From: Bdellovibrionota bacterium FG-1
GTDB lineage: Bacteria > Bdellovibrionota > UBA1018
Direction of reading: 5' to 3'
Assembly (NCBI GenBank): GCA_051382295.1
Contig: JBBCAW010000123.1
Coordinates: forward strand, 1-30,706
DNA length: 30,706 nt
The notes under the pieces: generated by a model
What the model was told of the DNA's origin: nothing
The model's database searches: none
The model's input: the letters and a program-made list of their open reading frames with translations, nothing else
Shown: piece by piece, positions 20,443 to 27,883 of the stretch
Layout: each line of letters opens with the position of its first letter
Numbering within the stretch: position 1 is the first letter of the stretch
Position numbers and translations under genes: made by a program

Positions 20443-20994
20443 CTAAGCCGCGCGATCTACCGAACCCACCTCATTTTTACCTGCTGGATGATCGGTATCA
20501 TTTTCGGTTGCATGGAGGTCTTCCCGATATCGTTTCATCTGGAGATTATAGGCGTCTGCCACTTCCTGAAAAAAATCGTTCTTACGAAACCGAACATCCG
20601 AAATAGTCTCACCCTGGGCGACCCGAATGAGATGTTTTTTAAGACGATAAAGAGGCCCAGCCACCCGATGAGAAAGAACCAAACCCCAAATAGTTAAAAA
20701 GGTCAATGCCACCGCGGCAGAAATACCGTAGTAAAAATTTTTGGTACCTTGCTGTTCTGCAAGGAACTGAAAAAAAACGTGATTGGAAGGAAGGCCCAGC
20801 CCCTCACCCAGTTGATGAAATTTCCAAAAAAAATAAGCGTCCGCCGCGTAAAAAAAACCAATAATCAAAGCCGAAATCCCAAGCGTGTACGCCAAAAAGG
20901 CGAGCTGGAACTGAGGATTAATCAAAAGTTTGCGTCGACCCGATGCTGCGTCGACTCTAGGTTCAGACTGGTTATTTGCCTCGACCATAAACAC
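20443..20994 (-). CDS. Two-TM protein with HAMP-like domain and no output domain
   Basis: RRKLLINPQFQ, two TMs, SHRVAGPLYRL...RFRKNDFFQEVADAYN; ends DRAA. Confidence 0.7.
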   Translation of the reverse strand: MFMVEANNQSEPRVDAASGRRKLLINPQFQLAFLAYTLGISALIIGFFYAADAYFFWKFHQLGEGLGLPSNHVFFQFLAEQQGTKNFYYGISAAVALTFLTIWGLVLSHRVAGPLYRLKKHLIRVAQGETISDVRFRKNDFFQEVADAYNLQMKRYREDLHATENDTDHPAGKNEVGSVDRAA

Positions 20995-21971: not shown

Positions 21972-23009
21972 TCAAACCGCGTCCAACCCCCATAACCAAA
22001 GGGGCAAAGCCCCCTCCGCAGGGCCGAAAAAAAGGCGGCAGGCGGCCATATTAGGCGTCACCATCAGGGGATCATCCTTGGATAAAGCCAATCCATAAGC
22101 AGCGGAAATCTTAGGTACATCAAGAGCCCGGGCCATGCACAAAAATTCAACCTCTGCCCGAGGCGCCCCCAATTGCCACGCTGAAAGCAGGTCAGGACTG
22201 GCCAAAAGTTGAGCCTCAGGTCTTTCCATTTTAATCAGGTGTAATAATACCTTAATTGCCGCTGAACTCTCGCCGCCCCATTCATGAACAACCCCCTGAA
22301 GATCAATCCCCCGATCGATCGCCGCATAGGCCAAGGGGGTTTCTGGGTCACCCAGCCAATACCACTGCACATTTTTATGAGCCTCAAGCCATCGTTCATC
22401 CACACCGGAATGCCTGATTCCCGTCCCACGAAGCCGCAAACACCTCAGCAACGAAGGAATCCATCCTCGCCCAAGGACCACTCGGGCAAAATCAGGGTCT
22501 GGACCCAGATCTAATTGAGACAAGGGGACGCGCACCTGCATCCCACAAAGCTCAAACCCCAAACGCTCATATAAGTGAAGTTCTGATCCCCACAATAGAA
22601 CAAGAGCCGCACCCCGCTCACGCGCCCATTCCACGGCAATCGAAACCGTACGGGAGGCCAATCCCCGCCCCCGAGCAGAGGGCGCAGTAGCAACGGCACC
22701 CATCAGCGCGACTTTAAGATCGCCAGCCGGAACCCTCAAGTCGGCAAGCCTGACTCCAGCGCAAGAAACCAGCTCCTCGCGTTGCCAAACCCCCACCCGA
22801 AATACACGGTCGCTATGAGGACCGACCGCCTCATTCCAAACGGGAAAATCGTCAAAAAAGTGCGCCCCGGCAGGAACACTAAAGGACTCATCTAATAACC
22901 TCGAAAATTGGGCTGATTTTTCAGGTCCTTCGATGAGATCCAGATTCAGAGTCTCAAGGATTTTAGGGGATTCAAGACTCTCTGGGGGCAAGGTTATTGG
23001 TGCATCCAT
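21972..23009 (-). CDS. GNAT family N-acetyltransferase (Eis-like N-domain)
   Basis: AVATAPSARGRGLAS acetyl-CoA motif A, LYERLGF. Confidence 0.85.
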   Translation of the reverse strand: MDAPITLPPESLESPKILETLNLDLIEGPEKSAQFSRLLDESFSVPAGAHFFDDFPVWNEAVGPHSDRVFRVGVWQREELVSCAGVRLADLRVPAGDLKVALMGAVATAPSARGRGLASRTVSIAVEWARERGAALVLLWGSELHLYERLGFELCGMQVRVPLSQLDLGPDPDFARVVLGRGWIPSLLRCLRLRGTGIRHSGVDERWLEAHKNVQWYWLGDPETPLAYAAIDRGIDLQGVVHEWGGESSAAIKVLLHLIKMERPEAQLLASPDLLSAWQLGAPRAEVEFLCMARALDVPKISAAYGLALSKDDPLMVTPNMAACRLFFGPAEGALPLWLWGLDAV

Positions 23010-23081
23010 GATCGGTCTCCCTCCCTCATCTTAAAGTAGAAATGAAAACTCCACACCCGGCAAAATTTTCTATAAAACACC

Positions 23082-23108
23082 TCAACTCCAGGCAGCCTTT
23101 GCCGATAG
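23082..23108 (+). promoter_or_regulatory. sigma28 (FliA) promoter
   Basis: TCAA(23082-85)-N15-GCCGATAG(23101-08), followed by AGGAGG SD and GTG start. Confidence 0.7.
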
Positions 23109-23131
23109 GCAATGATAGGAGGGCCACCTCG

Positions 23132-23425
23132 GTGTCCAAAAAGAAACATAAATTCGACCTCACGACCCTAATACATGACGGCTATCTAAAGGATGGGCAA
23201 ACCCTATTCTTTGTCAGCGACCCCAAAAAGACCTGCAAGGTCACCAAACAACCCAATGGCGAATATAAGGTTATCTTTGGACCTGAAACCATGACCGTTC
23301 ATGCTTTCGCCCAAAAGTGCCTCGGCACGGACCCCCCCGATCACGCATCGAAGTGGGTCCGCACTGAAGAAAATAAAACTTTATATGATTATTGGCATGC
23401 GGAGAATTACGCAAAAGCAGCTTAA
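23132..23425 (+). CDS. Small RAMA/TDBD-like putative nucleic-acid-binding protein (97 aa)
   Basis: GTG start after AGGAGG; LTTLIHDGYLKDGQTLFF...TVHAFA...KWVRTEENKTLYDY resembles the RAMA pattern by eye; ends ENYAKAA. Confidence 0.55.
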   Translation: MSKKKHKFDLTTLIHDGYLKDGQTLFFVSDPKKTCKVTKQPNGEYKVIFGPETMTVHAFAQKCLGTDPPDHASKWVRTEENKTLYDYWHAENYAKAA

Positions 23426-23460
23426 TGCTATTTTTTGATTAAGAAAAAAAGAAACAAATC

Positions 23461-23509
23461 ATGAGGCTAGGCGCAATAAAAAATAATTGCGTCTAGCCTC
23501 ATTTTTTTT
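23461..23509 (+). terminator. 17-bp-stem hairpin with T-run, abutting the flagellin promoter
   Basis: ATGAGGCTAGGCGCAAT-N8-ATTGCGTCTAGCCTCAT then a T-run. Confidence 0.75.
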
Positions 23510-23510
23510 C

Positions 23511-23537
23511 TAAAGAGTTTTTTTGGACCGCCGATCA
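23511..23537 (+). promoter_or_regulatory. sigma28 (FliA) promoter of flagellin 1
   Basis: TAAA(23511-14)-N15-GCCGATCA(23530-37). Confidence 0.85.
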
Positions 23538-23543
23538 GTGAAT

Positions 23544-23692
23544 TGTAAGCAGGAATGGGAATCAGGGTCTGCGCCAGGAGGTGCGGATCGGAAGCCCGAA
23601 AAGACTGCCACACGAATGTAGACTCATTCAGGCTATGGATGGCCGGGAAAGCTCTTGCAGCTTTCTGAACTTTAACCTTCATGGAGGAAGGT
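23544..23692 (+). promoter_or_regulatory. Flagellin 1 5' leader with GGA-loop hairpins (CsrA-type sites)
   Basis: Stem-loops 23566-23589 (loop AGGA), 23631-23644 (UGGA), 23675-23692 (AUGGAG, covers SD). Confidence 0.65.
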
Positions 23693-24541
23693 ATGGGACT
23701 GCGGATCAATACAAACGTACCCGCCCTCGTTGCGCAAAGAAATTTGCGTACGACCCGCGCCTCCCTCGACAGAACCCTTGAAAGACTCGCCTCTGGATCC
23801 CGCATCAACCATGCTGGCGACGATGCCGCAGGGTTAGCCATCTCCGAAAGTTTACGCGCCCAAATCCGCGGCCTTGGCATGGCCGAACGGAATGCGCAAG
23901 ACGGCGTCTCACTCGTGCAGGTCGCTGAAAGCGCCATGGGTGAAATTTCCAACCTTTTAATCCGAATGCGTGAACTGGGAGTCCAAGCCTCCTCCGATAC
24001 GATCGGACCCGATGAACGCAAATTCTTAGATCTCGAATTCCAAGAAAACCTTGCTGAAATCGATCGAATCGCCAACAGCACTGAATTTAATCGTGTTCCC
24101 CTACTCAACGGATCTGCTTCGATGTTCGAGGTCCAAGTAGGAACCCGCAATAACCCCGCGGTTGATCGAATCAAATTATTTGATGGTGCCTCGGCCGATG
24201 TCAACGTCGTAGCCCTGGGCCTCAACTTAAGCACGGTAGGCGACAAAGCCTCAGCGCAAAACTCCTTAAGTTCGGTCGATGGGGCACTCCAATCCGTCAC
24301 CTCGATTCGAGCCGAGTTTGGGGCCATGCAAAATCGCCTACAATCAATCATCAATAACCTACAGGTGAGCAAAGAAAATCTGTCGGCGGCCAATTCGCGA
24401 ATTCGGGATGCAGATCTTGCGGAAGAAACGACCGAACTCACGAAAAATCAAATTCTGCAACAGTCAGGCATCTCCGTGCTCGGCCAAGCCAACTCATCCA
24501 CGAAAGCAGCACTGAGCCTCCTCGGAGGGAACTCAGGATGA
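23693..24541 (+). CDS. fliC: Flagellin (short, D0/D1 only) 1
   Basis: MGLRINTN, ERLASGSRINHAGDDAAGLAIS, GAMQNRL, SRIRDAD; start after GGAGG. Confidence 0.97.
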   Translation: MGLRINTNVPALVAQRNLRTTRASLDRTLERLASGSRINHAGDDAAGLAISESLRAQIRGLGMAERNAQDGVSLVQVAESAMGEISNLLIRMRELGVQASSDTIGPDERKFLDLEFQENLAEIDRIANSTEFNRVPLLNGSASMFEVQVGTRNNPAVDRIKLFDGASADVNVVALGLNLSTVGDKASAQNSLSSVDGALQSVTSIRAEFGAMQNRLQSIINNLQVSKENLSAANSRIRDADLAEETTELTKNQILQQSGISVLGQANSSTKAALSLLGGNSG

Positions 24542-24610
24542 CAGGACTTAACCAAAAATTTAAATTTACTGAAGAGATCAATTTAAGGGAGGAACTCTCA
24601 TGTAAAAAAG

Positions 24611-24850
24611 TTTGACCCGAAAGCGAAGGCACGTTGCCTGAGCTCGTTTCCTGGAAAGGGATTACGGCCCGCTCCGCCCAGCCATGATGGTCATGGCGAA
24701 GCGGGCCCAAACCCCGCAGAATCCAGATGTCACAGGTCAAAAAAGTGCTGTCCGCAAGGACAGAAGCGGGCAATAAAGCCTGCGATCAATAACCCAGAGC
24801 AAGGATGCTCACTGGTTCCAAGGTTGGAACCAGACTGTCAAGGAGGATAG
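24611..24850 (+). ncRNA. Highly structured intergenic/leader RNA before flagellin 2 (unclassified)
   Basis: Closing stem TTTGACC/GGTCAAA, internal hairpins, GNRA loops, GGA-loop hairpins. Confidence 0.5.
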
Positions 24851-24854
24851 GCAT

Positions 24855-24869
24855 ATGAACGGAGTCTAG
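24855..24869 (+). CDS. Mini-ORF MNGV* upstream of flagellin 2
   Basis: AGGAGG(24841-46)-8 nt-ATG AAC GGA GTC TAG, 1 nt before flagellin ATG. Confidence 0.5.
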   Translation: MNGV

Positions 24870-24870
24870 T

Positions 24871-25707
24871 ATGGGATTAAGAATTGCTACTAATGTGACT
24901 GCCTTGAATGCTCAAAGGCAGATGGCTGCTACTCGCACTAATTTGGACAGGTCTCTCGAAAGACTTGCCAGCGGTTCTCGAATTAATCATTCGGGTGACG
25001 ATGCCGCGGGTTTAGCGATATCTGAAAACTTGAAAGCCCAAGTCCGAGGAATTAGGCAGGCCAAACGAAATGCCATGGATGGGGTCTCAGTCATTCAGGT
25101 TTCGGAAGGAGGTCTGAACGAAATCTCGAACATGATGGTCCGATTGCGCGAACTGGCCATCCAATCTTCTTCTGATACCATCGGTGATACCGAACGTCAG
25201 TTTGCGGATCGGGAATTCCAGTCGCTCAAGCAAGAAATTGACCGAATCGCCAATGCGACCCAATTTAACGGCACTCCGCTTTTGAATGGGAAATCCGGGA
25301 TCTTTGAGATCCAAGTGGGTACGCATAACAACCCGATCCTCGACCGAATCGTCTATAACGGCGAAAGGTCGGACGCGTCACTCGACGCGCTTAAGCTCGG
25401 GGGAGAGTCGGTGGCCACCAAGCAAGGAGCGCAGCTCAGCCTGTCAGTGATTGACGACGCGTTAATCCGGGTCAATAGTATCCGCGCTGATTTGGGCGCC
25501 ATGCAAAACCGGCTTCAGTCAACGATCAACAACTTGGCCATCAGCGACGAAAATCTGTCATCCGCCAACTCGCGAATTCGCGACACGGACATGGCAGAAG
25601 AAGTCTCCGAAATGACCAAGCAAAACGTCTTGATGCAATCTGGCATCGCAGTGCTGAGCCAAGCGAACCAAACGAACCAAGCAGCTCTTAAACTGTTGCA
25701 AGGTTAA
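24871..25707 (+). CDS. fliC: Flagellin 2
   Basis: Flagellin N- and C-terminal motifs; 278 aa. Confidence 0.97.
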   Translation: MGLRIATNVTALNAQRQMAATRTNLDRSLERLASGSRINHSGDDAAGLAISENLKAQVRGIRQAKRNAMDGVSVIQVSEGGLNEISNMMVRLRELAIQSSSDTIGDTERQFADREFQSLKQEIDRIANATQFNGTPLLNGKSGIFEIQVGTHNNPILDRIVYNGERSDASLDALKLGGESVATKQGAQLSLSVIDDALIRVNSIRADLGAMQNRLQSTINNLAISDENLSSANSRIRDTDMAEEVSEMTKQNVLMQSGIAVLSQANQTNQAALKLLQG

Positions 25708-25745
25708 AAAGTAGGGCGAAGTGAACAGCAAGAAGTATGACTAGA

Positions 25746-26072
25746 GGCTAAATGCAGCTATGCAAATCAAACTGGTGATTCCAATACCCGTCTTTCGGGA
25801 GAGCGCGGCGGCGAAAAGCCCCCGCTCTCTCGAAAGACTCAGTTAGACACCAGGGAGGCCCTTGGATGGAGTGATGAAAGTTTAAAGTTTGTGGAAACGG
25901 TTGGCAGCTCAGACCCGTACGAATGCGCCTGACCCTTTCCCCACAAGTGCAGTTTCTCAGTCGGCTGAGGAACTGTTTAGCCAAAACCGAGTTGCATCAC
26001 AATGCGACTCATTGACCAACGGGGCAAGGAAGCCCGGCCGTCACAAGGAAGCAGAGACGGCTTTTCAAGGAG
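25746..26072 (+). ncRNA. Highly structured intergenic/leader RNA before flagellin 3 (unclassified)
   Basis: Closing stem GGCTAAA/TTTAGCC enclosing a 16-bp hairpin and others; downstream AAGGA-loop hairpins. Confidence 0.5.
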
Positions 26073-26081
26073 ACGAACATT

Positions 26082-26096
26082 ATGAACGGAGTCTAA
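26082..26096 (+). CDS. Mini-ORF MNGV* upstream of flagellin 3
   Basis: AAGGAG(26067-72)-9 nt-ATG AAC GGA GTC TAA, 1 nt before flagellin ATG. Confidence 0.5.
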   Translation: MNGV

Positions 26097-26097
26097 T

Positions 26098-26934
26098 ATG
26101 GGACTGAGAATAGCGACAAATATCACGGCCATGAATGCCCAACGCACGATGGCTGGAACACGTAATAAATTGGATGCAAGCTTAGAGCGATTATCGAGTG
26201 GATCTCGAATTAATCGATCAGGTGACGATGCCGCAGGATTAGCCATTTCAGAAAACTTACGAGCGCAAATCCGTGGGATCCGGCAGGCCAAACGAAATGC
26301 CATGGATGGGGTCTCAGTCATTCAAGTGTCTGAAGGCGGCCTCAATGAAGTATCCAGTATTCTGGTACGATTACGTGAACTTGCGATCCAATCCGCTTCA
26401 GATACCATTGGGGATACTGAACGCGGCTTTGCAGACCGGGAGTTTCAGTCACTCAAACAAGAAGTGGATCGAATCGCCAACGTAACCAACTTTAACGGTA
26501 CTCCGCTCTTAAACGGAAAGTCCGGAATCTTCGAGATTCAAGTCGGTACGAAAAACAACCCGATTTTGGACCGCATCGTCTACAATGGCGAAAGGTCAGA
26601 CGCGTCACTCGACGCACTCAAACTCGGGGGCGAATCGGTTGCGACCAAGCAAGGAGCCCAGCTGAGCCTTTCCGTGATCGACGATGCATTAATCCGGGTC
26701 AATAGCATCCGCGCTGATTTGGGCGCTATGCAGAACCGGCTTCAATCGACGATCAATAATCTAGCCGTCAGCGACGAAAACCTCTCTTCAGCTAATTCTC
26801 GTATTCGAGATACGGATTTTGCCGAAGAAGTCTCAGAGATGACCAAAAACAACATCCTGTTGCAATCGGGTATCTCTGTGTTGAGCCAAGCCAATTCAAC
26901 CAATCAGGCGACGCTCAAATTATTGCAAGGCTAA
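26098..26934 (+). CDS. fliC: Flagellin 3 (close paralog of flagellin 2)
   Basis: Flagellin motifs; 278 aa, long identical peptide stretches with flagellin 2. Confidence 0.97.
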   Translation: MGLRIATNITAMNAQRTMAGTRNKLDASLERLSSGSRINRSGDDAAGLAISENLRAQIRGIRQAKRNAMDGVSVIQVSEGGLNEVSSILVRLRELAIQSASDTIGDTERGFADREFQSLKQEVDRIANVTNFNGTPLLNGKSGIFEIQVGTKNNPILDRIVYNGERSDASLDALKLGGESVATKQGAQLSLSVIDDALIRVNSIRADLGAMQNRLQSTINNLAVSDENLSSANSRIRDTDFAEEVSEMTKNNILLQSGISVLSQANSTNQATLKLLQG

Positions 26935-26995
26935 TCTTGGTAGAGACGAAGCAGTTAAACAGGTAGACTTGGAGTTAAGGGAGATACCCTGAAGC

Positions 26996-27883
26996 ATGTC
27001 AGTCACGCATTCAGTATGGATTTTAGGTGGGAGTAGCTTTGTTGGGAGCCATCTTGCCCTCGCGATGAGGGAGAAATGCAAGGTGACGCTGACCTACTAT
27101 GGCCGACCTATCAAGATCCCGGGAGTGACGTCGCTTCATCTAGCACTAGATAACCGAGACTGGGCAAAGCGAATTGCTTACTTAGCCAAGCCGGACACCA
27201 TTATCTACGCGGCTGGAAGCAACAACGTGGCCGCCGCCGAAGCCGACCCCCACATGTCAGACCATCTGCATATAGGGGGGGCGGCCACGATGGCAGACGT
27301 CACCGAAATCATGCAACCCAAGTTCATCTACTTGTCCAACTGCTTCGTCTTCGACGGACTCAAGGGAAACTACCGTGAAACGGATACAGTGATCCCCGCT
27401 GCCGCACTCGGTAGCTCCAAAGTCGGGGGCGAAAACTATGTCCGGGGGCGGTGTCTGAATTATATGATTGTCCGCTCCAGTCCTCTGATTGGGCGAGGCA
27501 ACGGACTCCGCACCACCTTTTTTGACCGTATCCGTACCGCACTCGATCGTGGGGAGCGATTCGAGCTGCCCAATCACGAATCCTTTTCCTATGCACCGAT
27601 CTCAGGACTCGTTGACCTCATCACCCGCCTGGTAGAAGGGGGCGTTCGAAACCGCGTACTCCATTATGGTGGGCTCACGCGCCTAACGCCTTACGAGTGG
27701 GCGGTTCAATTTGCCACCCGTTTTGGATATAATCCAGGCCTCATCGTTCCTGCGCGAGCGGGGCTCCAAAAAAAGGATTTCTCTCTCAACTGCTCTCAGG
27801 CTATCGAGCTTTTAAAGATCAAGCCCCTTCTCGTGGAGGAGAGCTTTGATCTGATCGAGAAGCAACTGATTGCCCGCCCGTGA
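26996..27883 (+). CDS. RmlD-like extended SDR (sugar-nucleotide-binding), catalytic residues degenerate
   Basis: ILGGSSFVG, KPDTIIYAAG, YLSNCFVFDG..GNYRETD, LGSSKVGGE (YxxxK Tyr replaced), DFSLN. Confidence 0.8.
   Translation: MSVTHSVWILGGSSFVGSHLALAMREKCKVTLTYYGRPIKIPGVTSLHLALDNRDWAKRIAYLAKPDTIIYAAGSNNVAAAEADPHMSDHLHIGGAATMADVTEIMQPKFIYLSNCFVFDGLKGNYRETDTVIPAAALGSSKVGGENYVRGRCLNYMIVRSSPLIGRGNGLRTTFFDRIRTALDRGERFELPNHESFSYAPISGLVDLITRLVEGGVRNRVLHYGGLTRLTPYEWAVQFATRFGYNPGLIVPARAGLQKKDFSLNCSQAIELLKIKPLLVEESFDLIEKQLIARP

Follow-up and report, generated by a model that had tools for sequence, protein, structure and literature searches.

What is the small protein that Bdellovibrionota bacterium FG-1 encodes just upstream of its flagellins, and what might such a protein do in a swimming cell? 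The window analysed here is the whole stretch of 30,706 nucleotides of contig JBBCAW010000123.1 (assembly GCA_051382295.1). An original prediction, made from the letters alone, had described a short gene in it as coding for an unstable, stand-alone, RAMA/TDBD-like regulator driven by sigma28. We followed up the gene, its product and its surroundings by comparison with relatives, structure prediction and whole-genome counts.

The gene lies at 23132-23425 (+), from a GTG start to a TAA stop at 23423-23425, and encodes a stand-alone RAMA-fold protein of 97 amino acids. A Shine-Dalgarno sequence, AGGAGG (23117-23122, +), is found 9 nt 5' of the GTG at 23132, and almost every orthologous locus has a site of the AGGAG/GGAGG type ahead of the start, as judged by reading rather than by tally. 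The product begins with (M)SKKKHK and ends with AENYAKAA, and is laid out as a basic N-terminal KKK patch, a RAMA core (residues 3-89) and a flexible tail. Promoter, AGGAGG, GTG and both protein termini were all recovered at the places where they had originally been put. A 127-aa reading was rejected because the promoter falls within its N-terminal extension, nearly all relatives listed measure 96-98 aa, and an in-frame stop occurs no more than 30 codons upstream in 64 of 81 orthologous loci; the preference of the original prediction for 97 aa is thus borne out. Compared with 22 ungapped 97-aa orthologues, the gene showed 503, 326 and 1253 differences at codon positions 1, 2 and 3, respectively. 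Comparison shows that the gene is real and vertically kept, and that its product has, as judged from sequence and model, a RAMA fold. Codon usage is uninformative on abundance, as the flagellins and the histone score as low as the RAMA gene, and a homodimer prediction (score 0.00) counts neither way.

Among 300 genomes of the phylum, the gene was found in 58 of the 68 belonging to the class UBA1018 and in 0 of the 232 of other classes, of which only 2 have a Pfam RAMA at all. It is present in one copy per genome, except for two genomes with two partial matches. Records carrying it include UBA1018 and FG-2, which PMC13200544 places in the class UBA1018 as undescribed organisms for which predation is a genomic prediction. 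Most of the missing genes may be assembly gaps, since a histone gene of similar size was found in only 60 of the 68 genomes; two f13 genomes and G008 may truly be without the gene. All 10 class genomes without it have flagellins. On a weakly resolved tree the family labels need 8 changes, which is the minimum and is as expected for vertical descent. Relatives of near length number 354, and scoring of 8000 candidates gave only 3 longer forms, two of which look like mis-called frames. Searched with the profile, 1.84 billion representatives yielded 26 matches, the remote relatives P0128-P0147 are single sequences lacking context, of which two end in -AA, and phage records contained no match to the gene. 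Short RAMA proteins exist in other phyla (Atlas clusters of 82-99 aa, mostly from Actinomycetota and Chloroflexota), so that the novelty lies in the fixed subfamily and its control signals and not in standing alone.

The 97-aa protein matched the Pfam RAMA profile (PF18755) with an E value of 3.8e-6 and 27.2 bits, the curated cut-off being 35.2, and the profile was matched by 92 of 97 aligned family members (E<=0.01; best 6.3e-8). None of these 97 matched the Tify domain binding domain (TDBD) in Pfam at E<=0.01. An AlphaFold model was obtained with a pLDDT of 88, the last residues having low confidence. When this predicted model was compared with 48,161 chains, the closest fold was the C-terminal DNA-binding domain of CcrM (6pbd; Z 11.6, rmsd 4.0 over 88 residues), followed by MPND (7ydt; Z 9.3, rmsd 2.7 over 80) and, with a middling score, a SAND domain (Z 5.8). 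Foldseek again placed CcrM and MPND on top in the same order (E 5e-3 to 0.12), and a sequence search of solved structures with the family profile gave no match. Of the proposed RAMA/TDBD likeness, the RAMA part is therefore supported by a profile match below the curated cut-off, structure comparison and Foldseek and the TDBD part is not; predicted fold and family-wide profile matches also agree with a stand-alone RAMA protein.

In CcrM, the C-terminal domain is reported to bind phosphates non-specifically through S315, H317, N330, W332 and R350 (PMC6787082), and in both solved RAMA domains the grip on DNA is described as being on the backbone, with no contacts to bases (PMC6787082, PMC9963953). 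According to PMC9963953, the MPND RAMA binds double-stranded DNA whatever its sequence or 6mA state and leaves single strands unbound; its DNA binding is inhibited by an acidic stretch that follows the domain, and the domain binds histones directly, helped by the acidic region. The phosphate-binding residues were mapped onto the family indirectly, through the canonical RAMA proteins L052 and L146 and the residue numbers in PMC6787082. In this mapping the S-x-H of CcrM (S315/H317) aligns with T55, which is invariant, and H57, which is conserved in at least 90%. The W of NGW was aligned to W75 by two aligners, spacing pointing instead to H71 on the N, so that the register is ambiguous, and the position of R350 is taken by an invariant W88. 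As the canonical N-G-W and the Arg350 position are not retained as such, the DNA surface appears altered; H71, W88, P68-P69 and K46 are new invariant residues, and the mean net charge of the protein is only +0.5. The surface motifs are highly conserved in the family, whose members share 70-80% identity between genera. L052 itself is a second, canonical RAMA at the end of a 321-aa protein (L052:868-1833, G000:C120), in the usual defence-type context with an ASCH-domain gene and a transposase-like ORF as neighbours; used as a query, it found no match in plasmid records and only chance-level matches among solved structures.

Upstream of the gene lies a sigma28 (FliA)-type promoter (23082-23108, +), composed of a -35 TCAA at 23082-23085, 15 nt, and the -10 GCCGATAG at 23101-23108. 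One such match is not above chance, since TNAA-N15-GCCGAT[AC] occurs 46 times in the genome versus 18-41 times at other spacings. The 120 nt upstream of the gene contained the sigma28-type pattern in 65 of 81 distinct loci, whereas none was found on the opposite strand and 200 shuffles gave a mean of 2.9 and a maximum of 8; it occurred in 40/44 flagellin-linked and 11/16 unlinked loci. With a matrix whose training set included copies of this promoter from relatives, the gene's promoter ranked 22nd among 4214 ORFs. A FliA gene is present in the source genome (TIGR02479, 273.9 bits, above cut-off), and this, together with the conservation of the pattern shown by these counts, upholds the promoter originally predicted. 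The promoter also matches the TTAAG-N16-CCGATA motif of the attack-phase promoters of B. bacteriovorus, for which FliA has been proposed as global regulator (PMC3627812). It is from this species, a member of a different class, that the term "attack phase" is taken over, and none of the other classes sampled yielded a relative of the gene.

Downstream of the gene, a 17-bp hairpin (23461-23502) followed by a T-run makes an intrinsic terminator (23461-23510, +). The hairpin has a folding energy of -29 kcal/mol and a z of -9.3, equalled in stability by 0 of 200 shuffles, and by eye a stem and T-run unrelated in sequence stands at the same place in most of 46 flagellin-linked loci. We read it as a terminator because its shape is conserved, its sequence is not, and it abuts the flagellin's own sigma28 promoter; for the same lack of sequence conservation it was rejected as an operator. 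The claim that the gene has its own terminator was therefore right, and the region 23461-23537, once suggested as an EMSA target, turns out to be this terminator and then the first flagellin's separate sigma28-type promoter (23511-23537, +; TAAA-N15-GCCGATCA), which is present in 43/46 linked intergenic regions. An Rfam search of 22900-27100 gave only 3 chance-level matches, all far under the gathering score.

Three flagellin genes follow (23693-26934, +; Pfam Flagellin_N/C), the first of which really starts at 23693 and not at 23681. They adjoin the RAMA gene in most of family f1 only: a hand count found a flagellin within 500 nt downstream in 21/27 f1 loci and in 2/22 loci of other families, so that the expected synteny exists in f1 and is missing outside it. 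Among all 84 distinct loci, a flagellin was adjacent in 46, further off in 9 and not found in 23, and 6 were too short; in the other families 18/20 fetched loci were unlinked to a flagellin at a 3-kb range and 1 more lay at 3 kb distance. Since the promoter persists in unlinked loci and the synteny is lineage-limited, sigma28 control travels with the gene and flagellin adjacency does not. The divergent GNAT acetyltransferase gene (21972-23009, -) tracks the flagellins more faithfully than the RAMA gene does, being within 6 kb of a flagellin in 6/6 genomes checked in which the RAMA gene is elsewhere. A dedicated flagellin regulator is not what these loci suggest, as adjacency is missing in at least four families in which GNAT stays with the flagellins.

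Several other features of this neighbourhood were seen. GNAT keeps near the flagellin cluster class-wide, even in genomes in which the RAMA gene lies elsewhere or was not found, and an RmlD-like gene follows the flagellins (26996-27883); both possibly serve flagellin modification. The flagellin leader (23555-23695, +) contains GGA-loop hairpins, one of them over the ribosome-binding site, which are conserved in relatives, and CsrA is encoded in the genome; the pattern resembles CsrA control of flagellin translation. In the relative L034, a long inverted repeat of ~230 nt is inserted between gene and flagellin. An -AA end is also present in three further ORFs of the window, which code for a cNMP-binding protein (215-721), a MotA-type protein (725-1510) and a small membrane protein (20443-20994).

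The last nine residues, HAENYAKAA (23396-23422, +; Ala-Ala codons 23417-23422), form a putative ClpX-type degron. Among the matches listed, a terminal Ala-Ala was found in 118/119 relatives (119/120 counting the window's own protein); at the level of loci it was found in 49/49, from nine families, the genome background of -AA ends being 90/4214 crude ORFs (2.1%). The two alanines are encoded by 15 different codon pairs, and the computation shows the tail to be under selection. Terminal Ala-Ala is reported to be the main determinant of ClpX recognition, Tyr at -5 and Leu at -3 contributing modestly (PMC7652416), and a ClpX gene was found in the source genome. The ClpX-type tail originally proposed is accordingly conserved across relatives. 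As for its being a mimic of the ssrA (tmRNA) tag, the Ala-Ala and the acidity are conserved (average net charge of the last 9 residues -2.6 over 96 loci; E or D at -3 in 97/119 listed proteins), and the remaining tag letters are not. Tyr at -5 was present in 69/119 listed proteins and 12/27 f1 loci, and in only 2/22 loci outside f1. Predicted tmRNA tags end in YA[LM]AA in 13/15 class genomes, the rest being one longer variant and one evident miscall, and no conserved ending of this type was found across the family, either in the 119 listed proteins or in the loci outside f1; in the source genome the tail ENYAKAA compares with a predicted tag end ADYAMAA. Tag and tail thus have the terminal Ala-Ala in common, and the tail differs in being genomically encoded, in its unconserved Tyr -5 outside f1 and in its usually acidic -3, where tags have Leu/Met. 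By its letters, the tail is better described as a putative -AA degron carrying an acidic run than as a conserved mimic of the tag.

The combination of a sigma28-type promoter and an -AA end is shared by other genes of the source genome. With a sigma28 matrix built from 108 promoters of relatives, and with crude gene calls, 16/147 high-scoring ORFs ended in -AA versus 74/4067 others (p 5e-8); about 55 of the 147 high scores are expected by chance, and the 16 include the RAMA gene itself and two ORFs with one shared upstream sequence. The excess persisted after filters for coding-likeness and length. Among operon-leading ORFs with a strong sigma28 score, those without an N-terminal hydrophobic stretch (non-exported) ended in -AA in 10/26 cases versus 30/1181 of the others, and exported ones in 0/25. 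This enrichment of non-exported sigma28-like ORFs is about ten- to twenty-fold in the source genome (L186-L203). The products include two HD phosphodiesterase-type proteins, CheA, a chemoreceptor, a hybrid kinase, a sigma54 activator and Lon, and many non-flagellar genes of this genome carry the sigma28-type motif. In G230 (same family, 1.2 Mb) the result was weakly repeated (2/32 versus 6/1049, p 0.02), the repeat test at a post hoc score threshold of 10 giving 4/53 versus 4/1028; G236 (another order, 1.2 Mb), which offered only 5 non-exported candidates, showed no enrichment (0/34 versus 13/1033). Two details may be added. The Lon protease L200 (G000:C53:25118-27577) ends in six alanines and has a marginal sigma28-like score. 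A dynamin-like/TPR ORF (L193, G000:C13:142154) and a DNA methylase ORF (L194, C86:27390) have in common their upstream sequence, first residues and sigma28-like match, the shared part being probably the terminus of a mobile or repeated element.

Our leading reading, to which we tentatively give a little under an even chance, is that the protein is unstable, belongs to the motile phase and binds DNA for the most part non-specifically; it would be cleared by ClpXP and would help to keep the chromosome compact or silent. Such a role would start from a core gene of one class, vertically kept, for a free-standing 97-aa version of the domain by which CcrM and MPND grip DNA. The promoter evidence strongly suggests that sigma28 transcribes the gene as its own short mRNA with the motile-phase programme, a second regulator probably gating transcription at a GGCA-N5-TGCC palindrome. 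Going by the modelled fold, the protein would then rather probably bind the backbone of double-stranded DNA with little preference for sequence or methylation, the basic N-terminus aiding this binding and the acidic tail possibly damping it. With still better probability, the protein would be degraded by ClpXP through its free Ala-Ala end, as would other cytoplasmic proteins encoded behind sigma28-type promoters in this genome. The weakest step is the last one, in which the protein might help to keep the chromosome of swimming cells compact or non-replicating, and removing the protein might help to release the chromosome at the start of growth. As background, non-replicating B. bacteriovorus is reported to have a very compact nucleoid by means left unexplained in that report (10.1101/2025.09.24.678257), and ClpX/ClpP are among the proposed attack-phase core genes (PMC5430801). 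Some results count against this reading: the cross-genus identity of 70-80% would be just as fitting for a protein with a specific partner or site, the surface facing the DNA appears changed and the net charge is low, the promoter pattern is absent from 16/81 loci, and the -AA enrichment is weak in G230 and absent in G236.

A rival reading, which we hold to be unlikely, takes the protein for a sequence-specific regulator of the sigma28 programme, maybe repressing its own promoter and further ones through the palindrome or acting on the flagellins. The palindrome, GGCA-N5-TGCC (23091-23103, no strand), was absent from the original prediction; it is a candidate operator overlapping the spacer and the -10 box, with a degenerate copy at 23059-23071, and in relatives a second copy often lies over the -35. 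We presume a resemblance to the ftr element of Caulobacter FlbD. Its GGCA half, which lies in the spacer five bases ahead of the TGCC that opens the -10 box, recurred (at most 1 mismatch, same register) in 37/69 RAMA-gene promoters, these relatives not being independent, and was rare elsewhere (1/43 flagellin promoters, 10/145 sigma28-like matches in the genome). Between ORFs the palindrome was enriched in the source genome (24 observed versus 7.2 expected, rank 3 of 256) and in G230 (7 versus 1.0). A specific regulator would also agree with the conservation of the surface motifs, with SAND as third fold match and with the flagellin adjacency in f1. However, in G236 the palindrome was observed 0 times versus 1.7 expected, and its excess over two controls was 1.14 in five gene-carrying f12 genomes and 2.12 in eight genomes of the order in which the gene was not found, both ratios being noisy whole-genome counts on incomplete assemblies. 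Because the excess is not tied to the presence of the gene, the RAMA protein was rejected as the binder of the palindrome and another regulator is the likelier one; the rarity of the motif in flagellin promoters and the lack of base contacts in the solved RAMA domains also speak against this rival. The palindrome type is GGCAAA-N-TTTGCC, with ~24 intergenic sites, some near another flagellin (C3:111118) and several near housekeeping-looking genes.

We likewise think it improbable that the protein is mainly a partner of other proteins (RNA polymerase or sigma28, a histone, or ClpX, for which it would be a decoy or timer) and binds DNA secondarily or no longer. The altered DNA motifs with their new invariants and the near-neutral charge would fit such a factor, as would the tail of f1, which is often D-Y-A-x-A-A as in the tmRNA tags of the class, a form found in 0/89 other -AA ORFs of the genome. 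The histone binding of the MPND RAMA (PMC9963953) points in the same direction, and a 74-aa bacterial histone is encoded here (L329:1381-1605, G000:C52:10900-11124; E 2e-14 to PDB 8cmp and 8fvx, the solved Bdellovibrio type) and in 60/68 class genomes. Yet the histone is phylum-wide (261/301 genomes with this query; 0/9 f14 and 0/9 f18 genomes), whereas the RAMA gene is limited to a single class; beyond f1 most of the ssrA-like letters have gone, and T55/H57 and the basic N-terminus are kept. As the class has the bacterial histone too, the RAMA protein does not replace it, and a histone replacement was discarded.

An RNA-binding or otherwise non-DNA flagellar assembly factor, tied to the flagellins and GNAT, is very unlikely. 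The gene does sit between GNAT and the flagellins in most of f1, behind a sigma28-type promoter, but it has its own terminator, nearly all loci of the other families are unlinked at the 3-kb range, the flagellin leaders already carry CsrA-type GGA hairpins with CsrA present, and the MPND RAMA showed no single-strand binding (PMC9963953).

The reading as m6A reader goes back to the proposal of RAMA as a candidate for this function from its methylase and nuclease fusions (PMC4738411), and CcrM as best fold match, together with several methylase matches in the source genome, one of them an ORF with a sigma28-like score and an -AA end, would be in keeping with it. However, adenine methylases of the families PF01555, PF02086 and PF02384 were found in 6/16, 3/16 and 7/16 carriers of the RAMA gene, respectively, and none of these three families in 7/16, which are 93-98% complete. 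No methylase or nuclease was recognised among the recurring gene neighbours, and no fusion to or constant association with an adenine methylase or restriction nuclease was found in neighbours, carriers or longer forms. The frequencies of GATC and GANTC in the source genome are near expected (1.00 and 0.93), and according to PMC9963953 and PMC11037411 there was no confirmation of the 6mA preference that MPND had been reported to show. A split CcrM or m6A partner was rejected, the carriers having no constant methylase of these three families and none being recognised nearby. With no conserved adenine methylase of these families, no adenine mark apparent that the carriers would share and no base contacts in solved RAMA domains, the slimmest chance of all is left to the m6A reading of the original prediction, or to a detached DNA-binding subunit of a CcrM-like methylase.

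A non-specific, stage-restricted DNA-binding protein has its closest known parallels in parts of several systems. With RAMA as defined by Iyer et al. (PF18755; PMC4738411) the 97-aa protein has the fold and a weak profile match over the whole core in common; the RAMA domains described there are fused to methylases, nucleases and chromatin proteins, whereas this one is stand-alone, single-copy and vertically kept, with a changed NGW. Caulobacter CcrM, whose S-x-H is apparently kept here, is itself restricted to a cell stage and cleared by a protease, but there Lon does the clearing, by way of the last 24 residues (10.1101/293738), whereas the end here is ClpX-type and no methylase domain or constant partner is present. 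MPND (7ydt, 7ydw) has an acidic stretch directly behind its RAMA, as here; it is eukaryotic and fused to an MPN domain, in contrast to the stand-alone UBA1018 protein, which is known from sequence and a predicted model. In Caulobacter swarmer cells, ClpXP is reported to clear CtrA, PdeA, McpA and TacA (PMC8973945), that is, DNA-binding, phosphodiesterase-, chemotaxis- and sigma54-activator-type proteins of one motile programme, kinds also met among the -AA products above; the proteins are unrelated, and degradation is suggested here by predicted ClpX-type ends.

The passages on RAMA in 10.1101/2025.10.09.681413 and PMC11037411 deal with fusions only. In the literature on RAMA, UBA1018 and Bdellovibrio FliA/ClpXP, mainly open papers judged by titles, beginnings of abstracts and passages, no account of this family or of -AA degrons in a sigma28 regulon was found. 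We conclude that a known domain occurs in a new role, for which the gene and its membership in the regulon are well supported and the function is unproven. It is conceivable, though we consider it quite unlikely, that in UBA1018 the domain by which a methylase grips DNA became a chromatin protein specific to one stage and working with the histone, and that sigma28 products share destruction by ClpXP through Ala-Ala at the switch to growth. If true, predators would have their own version, made of other parts, of the swarmer-to-stalked reset of Caulobacter, with a RAMA-histone lock on the chromosome of the swimming cell, as the RAMA of MPND works with eukaryotic histones.

Catalogues list RAMA as an accessory to restriction-modification and to eukaryotic chromatin proteins, and its proposed reading of m6A is disputed. 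That a stand-alone RAMA is retained class-wide, also in genomes in which the common methylase families were not found, suggests that the domain is put to a developmental use, and the UBA1018 protein is a small and clean object for settling the ligand of RAMA. The gene may also be used as a short marker for the class UBA1018. Together with the link between sigma28 and -AA ends, it provides candidates for the compaction of the chromosome in the motile stage and for the reset of the proteome in Bdellovibrionota.
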